Of a DNA stretch of 64,000 nucleotides, positions 55,675 to 63,949 are shown one piece after another; positions within the stretch are counted from its first letter, which is position 1; each line of letters begins with the position of its first letter. The position numbers were made by a program, and so were the translations under genes. A model generated the notes under the pieces. The model saw nothing but the letters and a program-made list of their open reading frames with translations, made no database searches and was not told where the DNA came from. Location of the stretch: assembly GCA_028823145.1 (NCBI GenBank), contig JAPKCA010000001.1:240-64239 (forward strand), written 5' to 3'. The DNA is from Flavobacteriales bacterium. GTDB lineage: Bacteria > Bacteroidota > Bacteroidia > Flavobacteriales_D > Sanyastnellaceae.

Positions 55675-56034
55675 TCATAAGCCGAGCTCCAATCGGGATT
55701 TTTTCGTCATGGAAGCGACAACTCGCTCGTAACTATGTTCAATCAACTCTCCCACCAGTTTTAACGGTACATCCGATTCAGCATCAACAGAATTCCAATG
55801 CTTCTTATTGAGGTGCCAACCTGGCCGAATGCCCAGAAACTGCTCTCGCAATTCGATGGCTCGTTCCGGACTGCACTTGAGAGAAATGCCGGTAAAATTA
55901 TCAATGTCCGCAATCGCAAACACCTTTCCCTCAACCTTCCACACCATGGTATGTGTGTCGAACGGAAAGCTCTCTGAAACGTACCGATAGGACAAGCATA
56001 CGTCACGAACTTCATCGAATTCAAAAGATCTCAT
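55675..56034 (-). CDS. MmcQ/YjbR family protein
   Basis: FPFDTHTMVWKVEGKVFAI...SLKCSPERAIELREQF..I.PGWHLNKKHWNSV is typical of the family. Confidence 0.75.
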   Translation of the reverse strand: MRSFEFDEVRDVCLSYRYVSESFPFDTHTMVWKVEGKVFAIADIDNFTGISLKCSPERAIELREQFLGIRPGWHLNKKHWNSVDAESDVPLKLVGELIEHSYERVVASMTKKSRLELGL

Positions 56035-56090
56035 TGGGAATGAAGGAAAGGAAGCTAATTTGCGGCAAATTTCGACGAAACCTTATCACG

Positions 56091-57023
56091 ATGAAAATTA
56101 CAACTTTACTCACGGTAGCGGCTACTTTGACTTCGGTCATATCTAGCGCACAATGCACCGATTTATTTATATCTGAATACCTGGAAGGAACTGGCAACAA
56201 CAAGGGGCTCGAGTTCTACAACCCGACGTCAGAAACCATCAACCTCTCTGGTTATCAATTGCAGCGTTGGAGCAATGGCGAAGGCACAGCGACCGATTGG
56301 GTCGACTTGATTGGCGAAGTTGCCCCGTTCGGCACCTGGGTATTGGTCAATGGACAAACGGAAGATGTGGACCTCGGCGGTGGAGCAACTTCTCCTTTGT
56401 GCGATCCAGCTATGCAGGCTCTTGCAGATCAATTGGACAACCCGTACCCTGCTCCTACCTACATGAACGGAGATGACGCATTGGTATTGGTCAAAAACAT
56501 CACGACCATTTTGGATATTTTTGGAAAACCCGGTGAGGATCCTGGTGTGGCTTGGACCAACGATGAAGCGAACGGATACATCGATATCGGAGATGGAGCA
56601 GCATGGTTGACTTCCAATCATACGTTGCGTCGCAAATATGACGTAATCCAAGGCGTTGTAATACCTCCAGTAAGCTTCAACACCTTCTTGGAATGGGATA
56701 CGTTGGTGGTGAACACGTGGGATGGATTGGGTGAGCATTTTTGTGCCTGCAATCCAAACGAAGTTGCTGAAATGAGTCCAGCTGTGACTACGTCGGTTTT
56801 CCCGAATCCTTCCTCAAATGGCATGTTGACCATCCAAGCGGATGCTCGGATTATGAAAGTGACCATTCACTCCATGACAGGCGCTTTGGTCTGCGAAGAA
56901 TTTGCAATTCCGGGCGGCTCACTGGCTGGCTGGAAGACACGTGAATTGAACGCAGGTTCCTACATCGTCAATTTGTACGTCGAAGGCGGAAAGACCTTTG
57001 CTCATCAAGTTTTGATTCAATAA
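56091..57023 (+). CDS. Secreted lamin-tail-domain (LTD) protein with a T9SS C-terminal domain
   Basis: Signal peptide MKITTLLTVAATLTSVISSAQ. DLFISEYLEGTGNNKGLEFYNPTSETINLSGYQL resembles the LTD at the N-terminus of ExeM/NucH-type extracellular nucleases. CTD SVFPNPSSNGMLTIQ... Confidence 0.7.
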   Translation: MKITTLLTVAATLTSVISSAQCTDLFISEYLEGTGNNKGLEFYNPTSETINLSGYQLQRWSNGEGTATDWVDLIGEVAPFGTWVLVNGQTEDVDLGGGATSPLCDPAMQALADQLDNPYPAPTYMNGDDALVLVKNITTILDIFGKPGEDPGVAWTNDEANGYIDIGDGAAWLTSNHTLRRKYDVIQGVVIPPVSFNTFLEWDTLVVNTWDGLGEHFCACNPNEVAEMSPAVTTSVFPNPSSNGMLTIQADARIMKVTIHSMTGALVCEEFAIPGGSLAGWKTRELNAGSYIVNLYVEGGKTFAHQVLIQ

Positions 57024-57027
57024 AAGC

Positions 57028-59880
57028 ATGCGGATCGCTTCGTTCTGGTTTTTCGCGTTTCTGCTGTGCGCGATAGGTGTCAACGCCCAACAAAGCGGCA
57101 AAATATATGGCGTAGTTTCAGATGCAATCACCGGTGAAACATTGATTCAAGCATCTGTTCGGTTGGGAAATTCTGGCGTTGCTACGGATTTTGACGGGCG
57201 CTATGAAATGGGGCTTCCTTACGGACAACATGACATTACCGTAAACTACATCGGTTACGAAAGTCAGACAAGGACCATCACCGTTGATAGCCCACAGTTG
57301 CAGGTCAATTTTACCTTAGCTACCATTGTTTTGCGCGAGGCAGAAGTGATCGCTGATGTCGCCATTGAAAGAGAAACCCCCGTGGCTTTTTCCAACATCA
57401 AACCGGTCCAAATTCAAGAGGAATTGGGTTCACAACCCATTCCCATGATTTTGAATTCTACGCCTGGTGTGTATGCCACTCAAGCAGGTTCGGATGACAA
57501 TGGCCCGTCCATTTCGATTCGCGGATTCAAGCAACGCAATGTTTCTGTTCTCATCGATGGTATCCCTGTCAATGACATGGATAGCGGTGGTGTTTTTTGG
57601 AACAACTGGTTTGGACTTGATATGGTGACACAAACCATGCAGGTCCAGCGGGGATTGGGGGCCTCCAAACTCGCATTGCCTGCAATTGGTGGCACGGTCA
57701 ACATTGTGACCCAGGGCATTGAAAGCAAGCGCAAGACGTCTGTCAAGCAGGAAGCTGGAAGTTTCGGGTTCACCCGGACCTCAATTGGCCACACAAGCGG
57801 ACGATCAGATGGTGGCTGGGGGTATACCCTCGCAGGAAGTTTTCAAAATCGCCAAGGGTATTTTGACCAAGACTACAACCGTGCGTTCTTCTATTATGTG
57901 AAGGTTCAAAAGGCGATGGGGAATCACACGTTGTCGATCAGCGCTACAGGATCTCCATCTGAAAATGCGTCCCGGGGCTACCAGCAGAGGATTGCCACCC
58001 ATGATAAAGACTTCGCGCGAAACCTGTTTGAAGGCACGGACGATGAGTATGAATACCTGCGCGGCTACAGCCAAGGCTATGACGGAATCTTCAACAATGA
58101 CACGTTGTTGGAGCCTGAAGAACAAGCGGCATATGCTGAACTGAACGCGGAGTATGGTTACAATTCCTCGGATGATTTTGAAGAGGAAGTTTCTGCGACT
58201 GACTTCATAGACACCACCGGATTGGTGAGCTACGGCAACGGCTACAATGTGCACTGGGGCGAGCTCAACAATGAGGTGTTGTACGAAAGGCAAAACAAGT
58301 ACCACAAACCCCTCTTCTCCGTGCGCCACAACTGGCGCGCCACGGAAAAATTGTACATCTCCAACATGGCTTATGCGAGTTACGGATACGGCGGTGGTTC
58401 ACGGTTGGAAAACAGCTTAGGTGCCGGTGATTACACGCCCGACGGCCAAGTCGACTTCCAGAAGTTCTACAACACCAATACCATTGGCGGATTGTTCGGC
58501 CCTCCCATTGACCCGACCTACAGTGATTCATTGCTGAAGTCTACTCGGATTCTTCGAAAATTGTACAACAACCACTATTGGTACGGTGTGCTATCGACGT
58601 TCCGTCATGAGACAACGGAGAACCTGACATTGTCAGGTGGCTTGGATTTCCGCACGTACCAAGGCGAGCACTACGCGGAGGTACACGACCTGTTAGGCGG
58701 CGACTATTTTATTGACAATCGGAATGCCAACGCAACAAGCAATATGCGGACTGTTGGCGACAAAATCGGATACCACAACGATTCATTTGTGCGCTGGGGT
58801 GGCGCATTTGCCTTGCTCGAATACAAAGGATACGTATGGAATGCCTTCCTTAACATCAGCGCCGTCACTCAAGGGTACAAGAGTGTTGACTATTTCTCTG
58901 AACCCAATGAGGACGGATCCTTCGCGACAAGTGGTTGGAAATGGATTCCCGGATACACGATCAAAGCAGGCGGGAACTACAACCTGTCTGAGTACTCCAA
59001 TGCGTTCGTCAACTTGGGCCATTTGAACCGAACACCGGTGTTCCGAAGTGTCGTGGATTACGAAAACGAATTTGTCCAAAACACCGAGAATGAATTGATC
59101 AATTCCGTGGAATTGGGATACAGTTTCAGCAAGTTCCCTTTTAGCGCGAACATCAATGCATACTACACGGATTGGCAAAACCGTCCGCTCCAATCGCTTT
59201 TGCGCTATGAAACCGTTGATGGCGATATCGTGCGAGCCAATGTGAACTCCATGAGTGCCGTGCACAAGGGCATCGAAGCCGATGCTGCATGGCAGGTGCG
59301 TCGCAACCTGACCATCGAAGGATACATCAGCCTGGGTGACTGGAAGTGGACGAGCTCTGAAGATAGCTTGGTGCTTTTGGATGAAAACACGAATTTGCAA
59401 TACTTCGATCAGGAAGGAAATCCAGCCATTGTCCAATACAATGCGGAAGGTGTGGCAGTGGGAGATTCTCCACAGCGGCAATACAGCATGTCCATCAAGT
59501 ATTCATTCAAGAAGTTCTATATCAAACCAAGATTTACGGTGTTCAGTAGGCATTATGCCGATTTCGACCCGTTCAGCCTCTACGGTGAAAATGAAGGCCG
59601 TCAATCGTGGCAAATCCCCACCTACGGTTTGCTCGACTTGCATACAGGATACAATATGGATATCGGTGGGAGCAATGTTGACTTCCGCTTGAGCGCATTC
59701 AATATTTTGAACACGGTATACTTGAGCAACGCTCAAAACAACGATGCCTTTGGCCAGTATTATTTCAATGATCCAGGCCGCAAATACGCCTTTAGTCAAA
59801 ACAACTTCGATGCTGGATCAGCCAGTGTCTACATGGGATACGGATTCCGAACCAACTTCTCCGTCCGAGTCCGCTTCTAA
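57028..59880 (+). CDS. TonB-dependent receptor with an N-terminal carboxypeptidase-regulatory-like domain
   Basis: GKIYGVVSDAITGETLIQASVRL (CarbD-like), a plug region (GSDDNGPSISIRGF..RNVSVLIDGIPVND), a long beta-barrel, and a terminal ...VRVRF. Confidence 0.85.
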   Translation: MRIASFWFFAFLLCAIGVNAQQSGKIYGVVSDAITGETLIQASVRLGNSGVATDFDGRYEMGLPYGQHDITVNYIGYESQTRTITVDSPQLQVNFTLATIVLREAEVIADVAIERETPVAFSNIKPVQIQEELGSQPIPMILNSTPGVYATQAGSDDNGPSISIRGFKQRNVSVLIDGIPVNDMDSGGVFWNNWFGLDMVTQTMQVQRGLGASKLALPAIGGTVNIVTQGIESKRKTSVKQEAGSFGFTRTSIGHTSGRSDGGWGYTLAGSFQNRQGYFDQDYNRAFFYYVKVQKAMGNHTLSISATGSPSENASRGYQQRIATHDKDFARNLFEGTDDEYEYLRGYSQGYDGIFNNDTLLEPEEQAAYAELNAEYGYNSSDDFEEEVSATDFIDTTGLVSYGNGYNVHWGELNNEVLYERQNKYHKPLFSVRHNWRATEKLYISNMAYASYGYGGGSRLENSLGAGDYTPDGQVDFQKFYNTNTIGGLFGPPIDPTYSDSLLKSTRILRKLYNNHYWYGVLSTFRHETTENLTLSGGLDFRTYQGEHYAEVHDLLGGDYFIDNRNANATSNMRTVGDKIGYHNDSFVRWGGAFALLEYKGYVWNAFLNISAVTQGYKSVDYFSEPNEDGSFATSGWKWIPGYTIKAGGNYNLSEYSNAFVNLGHLNRTPVFRSVVDYENEFVQNTENELINSVELGYSFSKFPFSANINAYYTDWQNRPLQSLLRYETVDGDIVRANVNSMSAVHKGIEADAAWQVRRNLTIEGYISLGDWKWTSSEDSLVLLDENTNLQYFDQEGNPAIVQYNAEGVAVGDSPQRQYSMSIKYSFKKFYIKPRFTVFSRHYADFDPFSLYGENEGRQSWQIPTYGLLDLHTGYNMDIGGSNVDFRLSAFNILNTVYLSNAQNNDAFGQYYFNDPGRKYAFSQNNFDAGSASVYMGYGFRTNFSVRVRF

Positions 59881-59890
59881 TCGTCATATC

Positions 59891-62092
59891 ATGAAAAAAT
59901 TTCAACTCTTCTTCTTGGCCTTTCTCGCTGGCAGCTTCGGCACGGCCATGGCGCAAACAGACATCTTAGATGCACGAACCAACTACAGTGTTGGACAATC
60001 CGTTACCGTTTCAGGCATTGTAACCAGCGATGGTAATTTGGGAATTGTTCGGTATTTGCAGGATGAATCTGCAGGAATTGCTCTTTATCCTGGAGGAGAA
60101 TGGAGCACATTGGGATTTGCTGACCCACAACCAGGAGACGCGTTGACCATGACTGCCGTTTTAAGCGAATACAACGGATTGCTCGAAGTGGGGCCCGATG
60201 ACATCACCCAGGTTGACGTGACTTCGGTAGGAAACCCGTTGCCTGAAGCGCAAACGGTCACGCCAGCTCAATTGGATGAATCCATGGAAGGGGAAATCGC
60301 GTACATCGAAGGCGTCGTATTCACCAACGGTGGATCCATGATTACAGGAAACAGCACCTTCAGCTTCTCCGCCAATGGGGAAGATGGAATCATCTACGTT
60401 CGGAATGACAACGAGCTCGTTGGTCTTGTGCTCCCAGCGGGAGAAGTCAACCTCTACGGCATTGTTTCCCAATTCTCATTCGATGGTTTTGGAGGATACC
60501 AGCTGTTGCCGCGTGGGTCTGCTGACTTGATCCCGACTTCTGCGATCAACCTTAGCGCACAGGTCGATCAAATCAACTTGACCACGACCAGTTTTGACCT
60601 CACGTGGTCCACGGATGTACTCGGAGATTCTCATGTCGAATATGGCTTGACGCCAGAGATGGGCATGGAGGTGGTGGATGACATGCAGTTGTTGAATCAC
60701 CAATTGTCATTGACTGACTTGAGTCCTGGAACCGTTTATTGGGCACGCGTGATTTCAATTGCCGGAGAAGACTCCACGTTTTCTGCAGTTCGTCCGTACG
60801 CGACGGTCTCAGAATCCCCGGGATACATTCGTGCGTATTTCACACGGGAAGTCGACAACAGTGTAGCGACCATCGAAAATGCGGCGACCCTTGGCACAAA
60901 TACGAATGACACCATTGCAGCTTACATCGCTACCGCTCAAAACACCTTGGACATCGCTGCATACAACCTGAACAATTCCGCCATCGAAAACGCGATCAAT
61001 TTGGCGGTTGAAAATGGAGTGCAAGTGAGGTATATCGCCGAAGGACAAAATGCCAACTTGGGATTGAGCAATGTGGACGACAGCGTTCCGGTTCACTTCC
61101 GGACGGATGGTGAAGGCAGCGGCATGCACAACAAATTCATCGTTGGCGATGCTGAAAGCACGGAACGGGCATTTGTATTGACAGGTTCAACCAATTTCAC
61201 CACAGGCAACCTCAACACAGACCCAAACAACGTGATCATTTTTGGAGACCAAAGCTTGGCCCGGGGATACACGTTGGAGTTTAATGAAATGTGGGGATCT
61301 GATGGCCCAGAGCCCAATGCGGCGAACTCACGTTTCGGCGCACTGAAGACGGTCAACACACCAAAACGCTTCATCATCGGCGGGAGTTCTGTTGAATTGT
61401 ACTTCTCTCCGACTGATGGTACCACCTCAGCCATCGAGCAAGCCATTCAGTCCACCGACTATGACCTATCCTTTGCTGTGCTTGCGTTCACACGAAACGA
61501 TTTAGGTGCGGCGGTGATTGAAGCTGGATCAAGCATCTTTATCAATCCCCAGGGAGCCATCGAAGATGTCAACTCCACCGGTTCTGAATACGATGCCCTT
61601 TTGGATGCTGGAATCGCCGTCTACAGCCACACCGGAATCTCGGGGCAACTCCACCACAAGTATGGGATCATTGACCAGAGTGAACCCTTGTCTGACCCAA
61701 CAGTTGTCACCGGTTCGCACAACTGGTCAACCACAGCGGAGACCACCAATGACGAGAATACGGTCATTGTCCATGACGCGCGTGTAGCCAACCTCTACTT
61801 CCAAGAATTCAGTGGATTGCTCAATGCCATGGGCGTTGGCATCCATGAAGCGGGCGAAGACCAGCCTTTGTGTCATGTTTTCCCCAACCCGGCCACCAGT
61901 ACAATCACCATACAATTGACCGAATTGGCGTCAATGGGTGATTGGATTCGGCTTTTGGATGGTCAAGGCCGTTTGGTCCTCACCGAACAAATCATGGGAA
62001 CTTCCACTCGCTTGGAAATCGGGCATTTATCTGCAGGAATCTACTTGATGCAGTACGGCAATAGTCAACCTTCACAACTGGTGATCCAGTAA
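59891..62092 (+). CDS. Secreted OB-fold / Fn3-like / phospholipase-D-superfamily (two HKD motifs) protein with a T9SS C-terminal domain
   Basis: Signal peptide MKKFQLFFLAFLAGSFGTAMAQ. OB-like VGQSVTVSGIVTSD...LSEYNGLLEV. A purple-acid-phosphatase-N-like LTWSTDVLGDSHVEYGLT. HKD motifs MHNKFIVGD...GSTNFT and LHHKYGIID...GSHNWS. CTD VFPNPATSTITIQL. Confidence 0.8.
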   Translation: MKKFQLFFLAFLAGSFGTAMAQTDILDARTNYSVGQSVTVSGIVTSDGNLGIVRYLQDESAGIALYPGGEWSTLGFADPQPGDALTMTAVLSEYNGLLEVGPDDITQVDVTSVGNPLPEAQTVTPAQLDESMEGEIAYIEGVVFTNGGSMITGNSTFSFSANGEDGIIYVRNDNELVGLVLPAGEVNLYGIVSQFSFDGFGGYQLLPRGSADLIPTSAINLSAQVDQINLTTTSFDLTWSTDVLGDSHVEYGLTPEMGMEVVDDMQLLNHQLSLTDLSPGTVYWARVISIAGEDSTFSAVRPYATVSESPGYIRAYFTREVDNSVATIENAATLGTNTNDTIAAYIATAQNTLDIAAYNLNNSAIENAINLAVENGVQVRYIAEGQNANLGLSNVDDSVPVHFRTDGEGSGMHNKFIVGDAESTERAFVLTGSTNFTTGNLNTDPNNVIIFGDQSLARGYTLEFNEMWGSDGPEPNAANSRFGALKTVNTPKRFIIGGSSVELYFSPTDGTTSAIEQAIQSTDYDLSFAVLAFTRNDLGAAVIEAGSSIFINPQGAIEDVNSTGSEYDALLDAGIAVYSHTGISGQLHHKYGIIDQSEPLSDPTVVTGSHNWSTTAETTNDENTVIVHDARVANLYFQEFSGLLNAMGVGIHEAGEDQPLCHVFPNPATSTITIQLTELASMGDWIRLLDGQGRLVLTEQIMGTSTRLEIGHLSAGIYLMQYGNSQPSQLVIQ

Positions 62093-62158: not shown

Positions 62159-63682
62159 TTAGCGCAACAATTGAAACGAGCCTGTCAGGGTTGCGATTGG
62201 GTTGTCTGCTCCCGAATAATTCGTTTCTCCCTTTATATCAATAACAGTCAGGTTGTCCAATCCTATTGGAATGCGAATCTCATACCAATACGTGCCCTCG
62301 GTGGCCTCTTCTTGGCTTGGATCCCACCCCGCCGTTGCACCGAAATTATCCGATGAATACATCATCACCCCCCAACGATCAAAAATCCGAACAGCACTCC
62401 CCGGCCAGGCATCCAATCCATCCACTAGGAAGGCATCATTCAAAGCATCGCCATTGTCCGGTGAAATAACGTTGGGCACCGTCAAACTACATTGCTCAGT
62501 CACAACCAGGTAGGAACCAGACCCTTCATAGCATGGAGGAACCGTGCTCATGATAACCGTGTACAATCCATCGCCAATGCTTTCTATGCCTGCACCATCG
62601 CCTGCTTGCTCCGTTACTGAGCCACCAGATGCTGTGTAAATCCACTCGTATTCATAGGCAGTCGATGTAGGCTGCATAACCACCCCGTCGACCCACAGAT
62701 TTGCCACATCATCCGGACAAACGGATATCATCCATTCATCCCACGGATTTGGCGGATCCAAACGCGTCAAGTCTATGGCCGCAAATCCTTCCCCCAAATT
62801 TCCACACGGGTCGGCTACAGATCCTGCCGCATCAATAATGAAAAGCTGGTGCAAACCATCGTTGATGATTGGCGATGAAATCGTCATGGAAAACAATGAA
62901 GCCAAATCTCCAGCTTGATCCAAAGGAACCAACCCAGCAAATCCATAGGAATTGCTTCCAGGACCCACCAACTCAAAATCTGCTGCTTCGACGGTAGATA
63001 CCAACACAAATTCATCTAGTTGAACGACAAAATCATTCAAGGTGCAATCCACTCCAATGCTATCAGGCTGAGGAGGCCATTGATCGTACAGACTGGCCGT
63101 AGACTGACCAAAATCGATGGTATACCCCTCCAAGCTGTTGGTCCAATTCATCACCACCAAAGCATATTCCTCGCCAGCCAATACAGGCAAGTCCGCATTG
63201 AATGCCGGACCATTCAGGTTGCCCGGTCCGTTGGATGCACCCGTTCCGCCGTTGGCGGTAGAAATACCTGTTGGCCCATTGGGTGTTGGAGCCGCTACAC
63301 CGTATGAGTTGCAACCAACTTCCGGAGACAAAATCGGCGAACCAACGCCTTCACATCCTCCACTGGTAATATCAAACAATCCCCAATCGTAATCGTCCAT
63401 GGGATTGATGGGATCCAAAATAAAACTAAGCAGACCATCCTCTTGCACCGTAAAAGTGTACCAAACACTGCTCTGCTCTAGATTTGCATTGCACGCACCT
63501 GTATACTCGTAAAAGTCACCGGTATTGAGGGTCGCTTCCGTTTCGGTGTACAAATCCCCGCACAAGACAACCCCTCCTTCGCAATCGCTGATGGTTTGAG
63601 AAAGGGCGCCCATCGTGCTCAGTACGAACAAGACCGAAAATCCACAGGGTACAGCCAACGATACCTTTATTTTTCTATCCAT
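62159..63682 (-). CDS. Secreted protein with a gliding-motility-associated (T9SS type B) C-terminal domain
   Basis: Signal peptide MDRKIKVSLAVPCGFSVLFVLSTMGALSQ. The C-terminus VPNVISPDNGDALNDAFLVDGLDAWPGSAVRIFDRWGVMMY...GTYWYEIRI resembles the CHU_C/type-B CTD. Confidence 0.75.
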   Translation of the reverse strand: MDRKIKVSLAVPCGFSVLFVLSTMGALSQTISDCEGGVVLCGDLYTETEATLNTGDFYEYTGACNANLEQSSVWYTFTVQEDGLLSFILDPINPMDDYDWGLFDITSGGCEGVGSPILSPEVGCNSYGVAAPTPNGPTGISTANGGTGASNGPGNLNGPAFNADLPVLAGEEYALVVMNWTNSLEGYTIDFGQSTASLYDQWPPQPDSIGVDCTLNDFVVQLDEFVLVSTVEAADFELVGPGSNSYGFAGLVPLDQAGDLASLFSMTISSPIINDGLHQLFIIDAAGSVADPCGNLGEGFAAIDLTRLDPPNPWDEWMISVCPDDVANLWVDGVVMQPTSTAYEYEWIYTASGGSVTEQAGDGAGIESIGDGLYTVIMSTVPPCYEGSGSYLVVTEQCSLTVPNVISPDNGDALNDAFLVDGLDAWPGSAVRIFDRWGVMMYSSDNFGATAGWDPSQEEATEGTYWYEIRIPIGLDNLTVIDIKGETNYSGADNPIATLTGSFQLLR

Positions 63683-63734
63683 TTCGTCTTCAGCTATTTG
63701 AATGGCATCAAGGTAAACAAATTGACAAGCACAT

Positions 63735-63949
63735 TTAAAACGGATCACTCAACCACCATGCATCTCGGATGATTGCATCATTCAGGGTCTCAAGAAAGGC
63801 AACCAACCCCTCGCGTTCATCTTCCGTCAACGCCAACCGATAGGGCGGTTGACCAAGGGCACATCCTCCGCGTCATACCTACAACCAACGGTTGAAGCGG
63901 ACACGAGCAGAAAGAACACCAACGAATTTCTATAACCCAGCAGTCCCAT
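63735..63949 (-). pseudogene. Possible remnant of a cytochrome-c / di-haem peroxidase-like lipoprotein gene (N-terminal signal + C-terminal helix, frameshifted)
   Basis: The minus strand reads MGLLGYRNSLVFFLLVSASTVGCRYDAEDVPLVNRPIGWR*. In the +1 frame it continues LTEDEREGLVAFLETLNDAIIRDAWWLSDPF*. L(S/T)xxExxxLxAFLxxL is the usual last helix of c-type cytochrome and CCP/MauG domains. Confidence 0.3.

Follow-up and report, generated by a model that had tools for sequence, protein, structure and literature searches.

A predicted capture-cut-import module for extracellular nucleic acid, encoded by a lamin-tail, TonB-transporter and DUF5689-PLD gene trio in Flavobacteriales

Three adjacent genes at positions 56091-62092 of the stretch studied here, 64,000 nucleotides of a Flavobacteriales genome (GenBank assembly GCA_028823145.1, contig JAPKCA010000001.1; hereafter the window), are likely to form an operon-encoded surface module that captures, cuts and imports extracellular nucleic acid. 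Gene 1 encodes a small protein with a lamin-tail domain (LTD), gene 2 an outer-membrane transporter of the TonB-dependent kind and gene 3 a protein in which DUF5689 precedes an Fn3-like module and a catalytic core of the phospholipase D (PLD) superfamily. What is observed comprises the order and domains of the genes, the integrity of their motifs, homologies, synteny and domain swaps; from these we infer the substrate, how the proteins are anchored to the surface, what the LTD protein does and what becomes of the imported material. An earlier note on this DNA had suggested a locus for extracellular nucleic acid resembling a polysaccharide utilization locus (PUL). This idea has gained strong comparative support from the DUF5689 domain, the kinship of the transporter, LTD-DUF5689 fusions and a swap to Endonuclease I in a related locus.

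The positions of the open reading frames (ORFs) bear out three genes on one strand, with gaps of 4 nt between genes 1 and 2 and 10 nt between genes 2 and 3:

56091-57023, + strand: gene 1, 310 aa, start MKITTLL, secreted LTD protein
57028-59880, + strand: gene 2, 950 aa, TonB-dependent outer-membrane transporter
59891-62092, + strand: gene 3, 733 aa, start MKKFQLFF, secreted DUF5689-Fn3-like-PLD nuclease candidate with signal peptide
56056-56062, + strand: promoter-like -7 element TAATTTG, about 30 nt 5' of the gene 1 start, from sequence reading

Since the YjbR gene upstream (55675-56034, - strand) is divergent and the CHU_C protein gene downstream (62159-63748, - strand) convergent, the trio stands as a discrete block. 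The -7 promoter consensus of Bacteroidota is TAnnTTTG, to which the element in front of gene 1 is close, and similar motifs occur at equal distance 5' of many orthologous LTD genes. Block layout and promoter-like motif suit a single operon that begins with gene 1. The element is overlapped by a perfect 7-1-7 palindrome, AATTTGC-G-GCAAATT, at 56057-56071; its interpretation as a conserved operator was rejected, as it is absent upstream of the orthologues.

Gene 3 is predicted to supply both binding and cutting. Its parts are as follows:

59981-60526, + strand: DUF5689, an OB-type module, residues ~31-212
60566-60802, + strand: Fn3-like beta-sandwich linker, residues 226-304, all-beta, predicted local distance difference test (pLDDT) > 90 in the model
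60899-61825, + strand: two-lobed PLD-superfamily core, residues ~337-645, PLDc_2 105 bits in two stretches
61127-61150, + strand: HKD motif 1, HNKFIVGD, with H413/K415/D420 and GSxN
61652-61675, + strand: HKD motif 2, HHKYGIID, with H588/K590/D595 and GSHN
61877-62089, + strand: type A C-terminal sorting domain (CTD) of the T9SS (type IX secretion system), residues 663-733, 37.7 and 27.2 bits, above the cut-offs

Both HKD motifs are complete, with the pattern HxK(x)4D(x)6GSxN expected of one active site built from two lobes, and invariant in 37 homologues. The best NCBIfam match of the core is the nuclease NucT, and a search of PDB sequences put Zucchini/MitoPLD, Nuc and NucT first, with a single monomer aligned to each lobe. 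An AlphaFold2 (AF2) model of gene 3 reached a pLDDT of 87.6. When the whole model was compared by Foldseek, the matches were dominated by the PLD core and led by PLD3/PLD4, which are lysosomal 5' exonucleases, ahead of F13 and the lipid PLDs; the superposition of Nuc on one lobe has a template modelling (TM) score of 0.81. The two-HKD, Nuc-type PLD domain claimed in the earlier note is thus upheld by the PLDc_2 score, by the invariant motifs and by NucT, Nuc, Zucchini and PLD3/4 as closest relatives in sequence and structure. Overall, the resemblance of sequence and model favours a nuclease without amounting to proof.

The core shares the HxK(x)4D...GSxN motifs with Nuc of the Salmonella plasmid pKM101, Helicobacter NucT, Zucchini/PLD6 and PLD3/PLD4. 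Each half aligns to a Nuc or Zucchini monomer and the whole core superposes on PLD3/4, at an identity to the PLD-superfamily nucleases of 15-24%. Unlike gene 3, however, Nuc, NucT and Zucchini are single-HKD homodimers and PLD3/4 are lysosomal glycoproteins, and none of these enzymes has a DUF5689 domain, an Fn3-like module or a T9SS tail.

The region in front of the core, described in the earlier note as OB-like, proved to be so and could be identified further as DUF5689. Scanned alone, this N-domain scored 34.3 bits (cut-off 28.6) over profile positions 19-216 of 217, and a genome-wide scan found one DUF5689 match in the assembly, namely this domain (31.8 bits). DUF5689 was unlisted in the whole-protein Pfam scan of gene 3 and surfaced in the genome scan and the domain-only scan. 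In a comparison by hhalign with the DUF5689 of transporter-partner lipoproteins, the N-domain aligned over 185 columns with a probability of 98% and an E-value of 1.6e-13. Encoded by the gene that begins 10 nt past the barrel gene, this DUF5689 belongs to the nuclease candidate instead of being a protein of its own. As to the Fn3 or purple-acid-phosphatase-N-like module of the earlier note, an all-beta module does appear in the model at residues 226-304, while its assignment to either family stayed under the profile cut-offs (fn3, 19.6 bits; Pur_ac_phosph_N, 17.9 bits).

The transporter encoded by gene 2 has a signal peptide, and the C-terminal residue of its barrel is Phe. Its recognizable N-terminal parts and one insertion are:

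57103-57348, + strand: CarbopepD_reg-like domain, residues 26-107, CarbopepD_reg_2 49.5 bits
57370-57693, + strand: plug, residues 115-222, Plug 47.5 bits
57985-58230, + strand: acidic, Tyr-rich barrel insertion, residues ~320-400, EGTDDEYEYL...DDFEEEVSATDF

A profile scan of genes 1-3 and six neighbouring ORFs gave no match to the SusD family. With CarbopepD_reg_2 and Plug above cut-off and no SusD in the ORFs scanned, the description as a SusD-less transporter of the CarbopepD type holds. The insertion is unaligned to DUF5689-associated barrels and splits the gene 2 matches in other genomes.

To place this barrel, 14 barrels encoded beside stand-alone DUF5689 lipoproteins were used as proxies for two barrels with published links to DNA, DdbC of Bacteroides and RA0C_RS04915 of Riemerella. 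Against all ORFs of the window's own genome, the proxies scored 65-190 bits with gene 2 and 92-223 bits with a paralogue on contig C115 (36471-39563); the remaining TonB receptors of the genome, about eleven in total, scored at most 50 bits. Gene 2 and the C115 barrel match each other with 342 bits. In a quick maximum-likelihood tree with outgroups from the own genome only, the trio-type barrels are monophyletic (support 99), with the C115 barrel as their sister (95). This group and the clade of DUF5689-neighbour barrels (100) meet in a polytomy, apart from ordinary receptors. By these sequence comparisons, the gene 2 barrel appears to be related to the DNA-uptake barrels without belonging to their clade. 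At C115:36471-42932, the paralogous barrel gene is divergent from a gene for a 1109-aa secreted protein with LTD repeats. This pair may be a second, nuclease-less module of LTD protein and barrel.

Gene 1 comprises a secretion signal, the LTD with an extension and a T9SS tail:

residues 1-21, + strand: signal peptide of signal peptidase I (SPI) type, cleaved between SSAQ and C
56145-56516, + strand: LTD, residues 19-142, 45.2 bits (cut-off 34.3)
56154-56156, + strand: Cys22
56742-56750, + strand: H216-x-C218-x-C220 motif
56796-57020, + strand: type A T9SS CTD, residues 236-310, 28.6/29.7 bits, above both cut-offs

Residues 6-146 align to the N-terminus of the ExeM model with 60 bits (the cut-off for the full model is 1300). 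Together with the LTD score, this agrees with the assignment to the LTD type found at the N-terminus of the extracellular nucleases ExeM and NucH. A PDB sequence search with gene 1 gave no match. The Foldseek matches of its AF2 model (pLDDT 85.6) include a T9SS CTD (8gl8_D) and the tail of lamin A/C (3gef); most matches are generic Ig-like folds, the lamin tail holding rank 48, and the C-terminus reaches a TM-score of 0.86 against CTDs of T9SS substrates. The invariant positions in an alignment of 31 orthologues include Cys22, which immediately follows the signal peptide, as well as His216 and Cys220; Cys218 is kept in at least 90%. The H-x-C-x-C motif lies in the LTD extension, and its conservation along with Cys22 suggests a disulfide or metal site that would close this extension.

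Consistent with the earlier note, the outer two genes carry the marks of T9SS export. Their CTDs score above both cut-offs (Por_Secre_tail/TIGR04183), and the genome, which encodes SprA (520 bits), possesses a T9SS. The signal peptide of gene 3, cleaved between AMAQ and T, is of the SPI type like that of gene 1. Thus, neither protein has the appearance of a lipoprotein processed by signal peptidase II (SPII).

Conservation of the trio was assessed in the 80 top-ranking loci that encode a gene 3 homologue. In 44 of them, the LTD gene is followed by the barrel gene and this by the PLD gene; five further loci end early, yet have the barrel adjoining the PLD gene, and one shows the order PLD, LTD, barrel. 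Co-occurrence in other genomes, which the earlier note had put forward as a test, is therefore found in 44-50 of the 80 loci. PLD identity in the trio loci ranges from 76% down to 39%. Judging from record titles, the carriers belong to Cryomorphaceae, Crocinitomicaceae, other Flavobacteriales, Saprospiraceae and Lewinella, one of them being the cultivable Lewinella cohaerens DSM 23179 (locus L042). Many are single-cell genomes or ocean metagenome-assembled genomes (MAGs), among them Tara-type MAGs and bins from ALOHA and TMED. In a sample of 301 genomes of the phylum, gene 3 was matched at E <= 1e-30 in 78, and about 50 of the matches cover most of its length. Stand-alone PLD homologues, as in Hymenobacter and in some Saprospiraceae, have housekeeping or unrelated genes as neighbours, which offer no hint of function. 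As the distant homologues stand alone, the DUF5689-PLD enzyme appears to be self-sufficient and to have been coupled to the barrel in some lineages. A different coupling is seen in another lineage of the phylum (locus L128, G213:C1, 3279-10479), where a 790-aa gene 3 homologue comes after genes for a TonB receptor unlike DdbC, for a PorV/FadL-like protein and for a protein of 346 aa without Pfam match. In the cultured strain Cryomorpha ignava QSSC 1-22 (L023:7001-9097), the gene 3 orthologue contains one in-frame stop codon and may be broken.

The same 301 genomes were sampled for DUF5689, and 20 loci were cut out. Their canonical arrangement combines a barrel and a DUF5689 lipoprotein with an EEP nuclease (PF19580) that is encoded divergently. 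Two of the lipoproteins have a fused C-terminal LTD, one after two DUF5689 domains (L114) and one after a single DUF5689 (L118), and the LTD of L114 opens with a motif closely like that of gene 1. Taken together, these fusions, the second pair on contig C115 and the conserved synteny tie LTD proteins to this group of barrels. Two genomes of family f4 (L119 and G219) have a gene-2-like barrel within about 10 kb of a DUF5689 gene. In L119 (G163:C16, 7540-16928), a 559-aa MAM-like protein is encoded between the gene-2-like barrel and a cluster of EEP nuclease, barrel and DUF5689 lipoprotein; the corresponding region of the other genome, with gene-2-like barrel and DUF5689 gene, is G219:C1, ~1332799-1344418.

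Exchange of the catalytic domain bears most directly on the substrate. In genome G099, from the same order but another family, a 353-aa LTD-CTD protein is followed by a gene-2-like barrel of 933 aa and by a 753-aa protein in which DUF5689 and an Ig-like module are joined to Endonuclease_1 and a T9SS tail. By its domains, this slot of matching architecture holds an unambiguous nuclease domain in place of the PLD core. The genes downstream, one with a 5'-nucleotidase C-domain and one for a metallophosphoesterase, point to nucleotide breakdown. Genome G015 encodes a 1333-aa OB-DUF5689-EEP-CTD protein near a gene-2-like barrel, and the order in G167 is PLD, LTD, barrel. Since PLD, Endonuclease I and EEP domains interchange, a shared nucleic-acid substrate is the best explanation.

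Based on these features, the trio would operate as follows. The products of genes 1 and 3 would be exported by Sec and then by the T9SS and would probably be held on the cell surface. There, the DUF5689 domain of gene 3, a tandem OB-type structure, would bind DNA or RNA, and the two-HKD site would cut the phosphodiester backbone without metal ions, via a phospho-histidine intermediate as in Nuc. Driven by TonB, the gene 2 transporter, as a likely relative of DdbC and the Riemerella barrels, would import the fragments into the periplasm. The LTD protein of gene 1 may assist the barrel as an accessory partner for docking or for binding of the substrate, filling the place held elsewhere by SusD or by a DUF5689-LTD lipoprotein.

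Three known systems are closely comparable. The ddbABCDEF genes of Bacteroides thetaiotaomicron are needed for DNA depletion, and the DUF5689 protein DdbD, which resembles the p202 DNA-binding domain, was modelled atop the barrel DdbC, with an interface reported as lid-like (Sharan et al., PNAS 2025, PMC12478041). Like the ddb locus, the trio is PUL-like and combines a SusD-less TonB-dependent transporter with an adjoining DUF5689 module for DNA binding and with secreted nuclease(s), both functions being predicted ones in the trio. The logic, for the trio predicted from the genes alone, is also the same: bind, cut outside, import. Unlike in ddb, where it is a separate SPII lipoprotein, DUF5689 is part of the nuclease candidate in the trio. 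This candidate is of the two-HKD PLD type, whereas the text of PMC12478041 mentions no PLD nuclease. Moreover, both accessory proteins of the trio have T9SS tails in place of lipid anchors, its barrel gene comes after that of a small LTD protein, it numbers three genes versus six, and the trio barrels form a clade separate from the DUF5689-lipoprotein-associated barrels in the quick tree. In Riemerella anatipestifer, the CarbopepD-type barrel RA0C_RS04915 and the DUF5689 protein RA0C_RS04920 are essential for natural transformation (PMC8459023). Trio and Riemerella pair have in common a Flavobacteriales barrel with a carboxypeptidase-regulatory-like N-domain that is paired with a DUF5689 protein, and the proxy loci L112-L125 (EEP nuclease, barrel, DUF5689 lipoprotein) match the Riemerella arrangement. 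In contrast to the trio, the Riemerella pair has a genetic link to transformation, its DUF5689 protein is without a catalytic domain, and it has neither a preceding LTD gene nor a PLD.

The third system, ExeM/NucH of Shewanella, Vibrio and Aeromonas (PMC6085458), has the same set of modules as the trio, from the LTD and a YhcR-like nucleic-acid-binding region of OB type to the nuclease domain. In the trio, these modules are split over two T9SS proteins around the barrel, the catalytic domain is of PLD type, and no EEP domain was found in the three-gene operon by profile scan. ExeM, on the other hand, is one polypeptide with an EEP catalytic domain and no dedicated transporter; presumably, as the NCBIfam model name exonuc_ExeM-GG implies, it has a GlyGly-CTERM anchor. 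A literature search combining LTD, TonB-dependent and nuclease, and one for DUF5689, found no description of the trio form. In the literature searched, DUF5689 occurs in two papers only, those on Riemerella and on ddbABCDEF, and neither mentions this form. The principle of barrel, DUF5689 and secreted nucleases for DNA was already published in 2021 (Riemerella) and 2025 (Bacteroides). New here are the T9SS-delivered parts, the fusion of DUF5689 to a PLD-type nuclease candidate and the separate small LTD protein.

Several observations weigh against a nucleic-acid module. LTD genes are numerous in the window's genome (14 matches), so that a single adjacency of LTD gene and barrel carries little weight, and ExeM can degrade DNA without its LTD (PMC6085458). 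The kinship between trio barrel and DNA-uptake barrels, drawn from sequence comparison, rests on proxies and on a tree with a polytomy and own-genome outgroups. In 30 of the 80 loci, the gene 3 homologue is without partners in unrelated contexts. The gene 3 fold is also matched by the phospholipase D 7e0m and by classical PLDs, in a superfamily that includes lipid enzymes. Finally, a 5'-nucleotidase was not found in the window's genome, which is 85% complete.

Up to the import step, the module proposed here overlaps with a reading in which the trio is an outer-membrane DNA-uptake port for natural transformation, passing long DNA to ComEC, DprA and RecA. The essential Riemerella homologue pair speaks for such a port (PMC8459023), as does the presence of DprA and a ComEC gene. 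As the genome encodes no other DUF5689 protein, the trio would be its only port of this kind. But the ComEC frame (~1667-3160 on C57, a 4.2-kb contig) contains one in-frame TGA, marking either a pseudogene or an assembly error, and the fusion of the binding domain to a nuclease candidate suits degradation. The 5'-nucleotidase genes added in the related G099 locus are a catabolic signature, and gut Bacteroides with ddb loci are not consistently transformable (PMC12478041). We therefore regard a port for transformation as unlikely and favour nutrient use, for phosphorus, nitrogen and carbon. In a still bolder version, to which we give slightly less credence, abundant pelagic Flavobacteriales and Saprospiraceae would have the trio as their only DNA port in the outer membrane. 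As a translocon powered by TonB, it would take in long DNA for transformation and food alike, and the LTD protein would serve the barrel as a subunit dedicated to docking or to the handling of DNA.

It is quite improbable that the PLD enzyme cleaves a phosphodiester other than nucleic acid (phospholipid head groups, teichoic-acid-like polymers or glycerophosphodiesters) and that the barrel imports the products. Enzymes of the PLD superfamily vary widely in function, the fold is also matched by lipid PLDs and by phosphatidylserine synthase, and Flavobacterium has phosphate-starvation-induced SusCD-like systems with phosphoesterases (bioRxiv 10.1101/719427). However, the closest sequence and profile matches of the enzyme are all nucleases, it is fused to DUF5689, and Endonuclease I or EEP nucleases hold the equivalent position in related loci. 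Even further from our expectation is that the three genes are mere neighbours, i.e. independent secreted proteins beside an orphan receptor with no common function. The many LTD proteins of the genome and the solitary PLD protein of many other genomes would allow this. It is opposed by the short intergenic gaps, by an order retained down to 39% identity and across orders, by the independent LTD-DUF5689 fusions and by the second pair of LTD protein and barrel in the own genome.

Two other assignments were rejected. Neither a SusD nor a CAZyme domain came up when genes 1-3 were scanned, so the trio does not qualify as a glycan PUL; a GH20 operon upstream is on the opposite strand, beyond the YjbR gene. 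A defence system was dismissed on the score of the DISARM DrmC match (23 bits, cut-off 133).

Dissolved DNA is a large marine pool of phosphorus, nitrogen and carbon. Bacteroidota have been implicated as major DNA degraders (PMC8289736). According to the record titles of related loci, the compact trio module appears to be common in pelagic Flavobacteriales. Were the trio indeed the sole port for DNA, it would provide a first defined role for the widespread bacterial LTD and show that genes can be transferred in the ocean by a route that does not depend on pili. If the capture-cut-import module proposed here is real, the DNA-utilization system of gut Bacteroides would extend to the ocean, with a nuclease slot that is interchangeable between PLD, Endonuclease I and EEP domains. 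Bacterial lamin-tail domains would gain a testable role, and the trio would serve as a gene marker with which DNA scavenging could be traced in metagenomes and metatranscriptomes.

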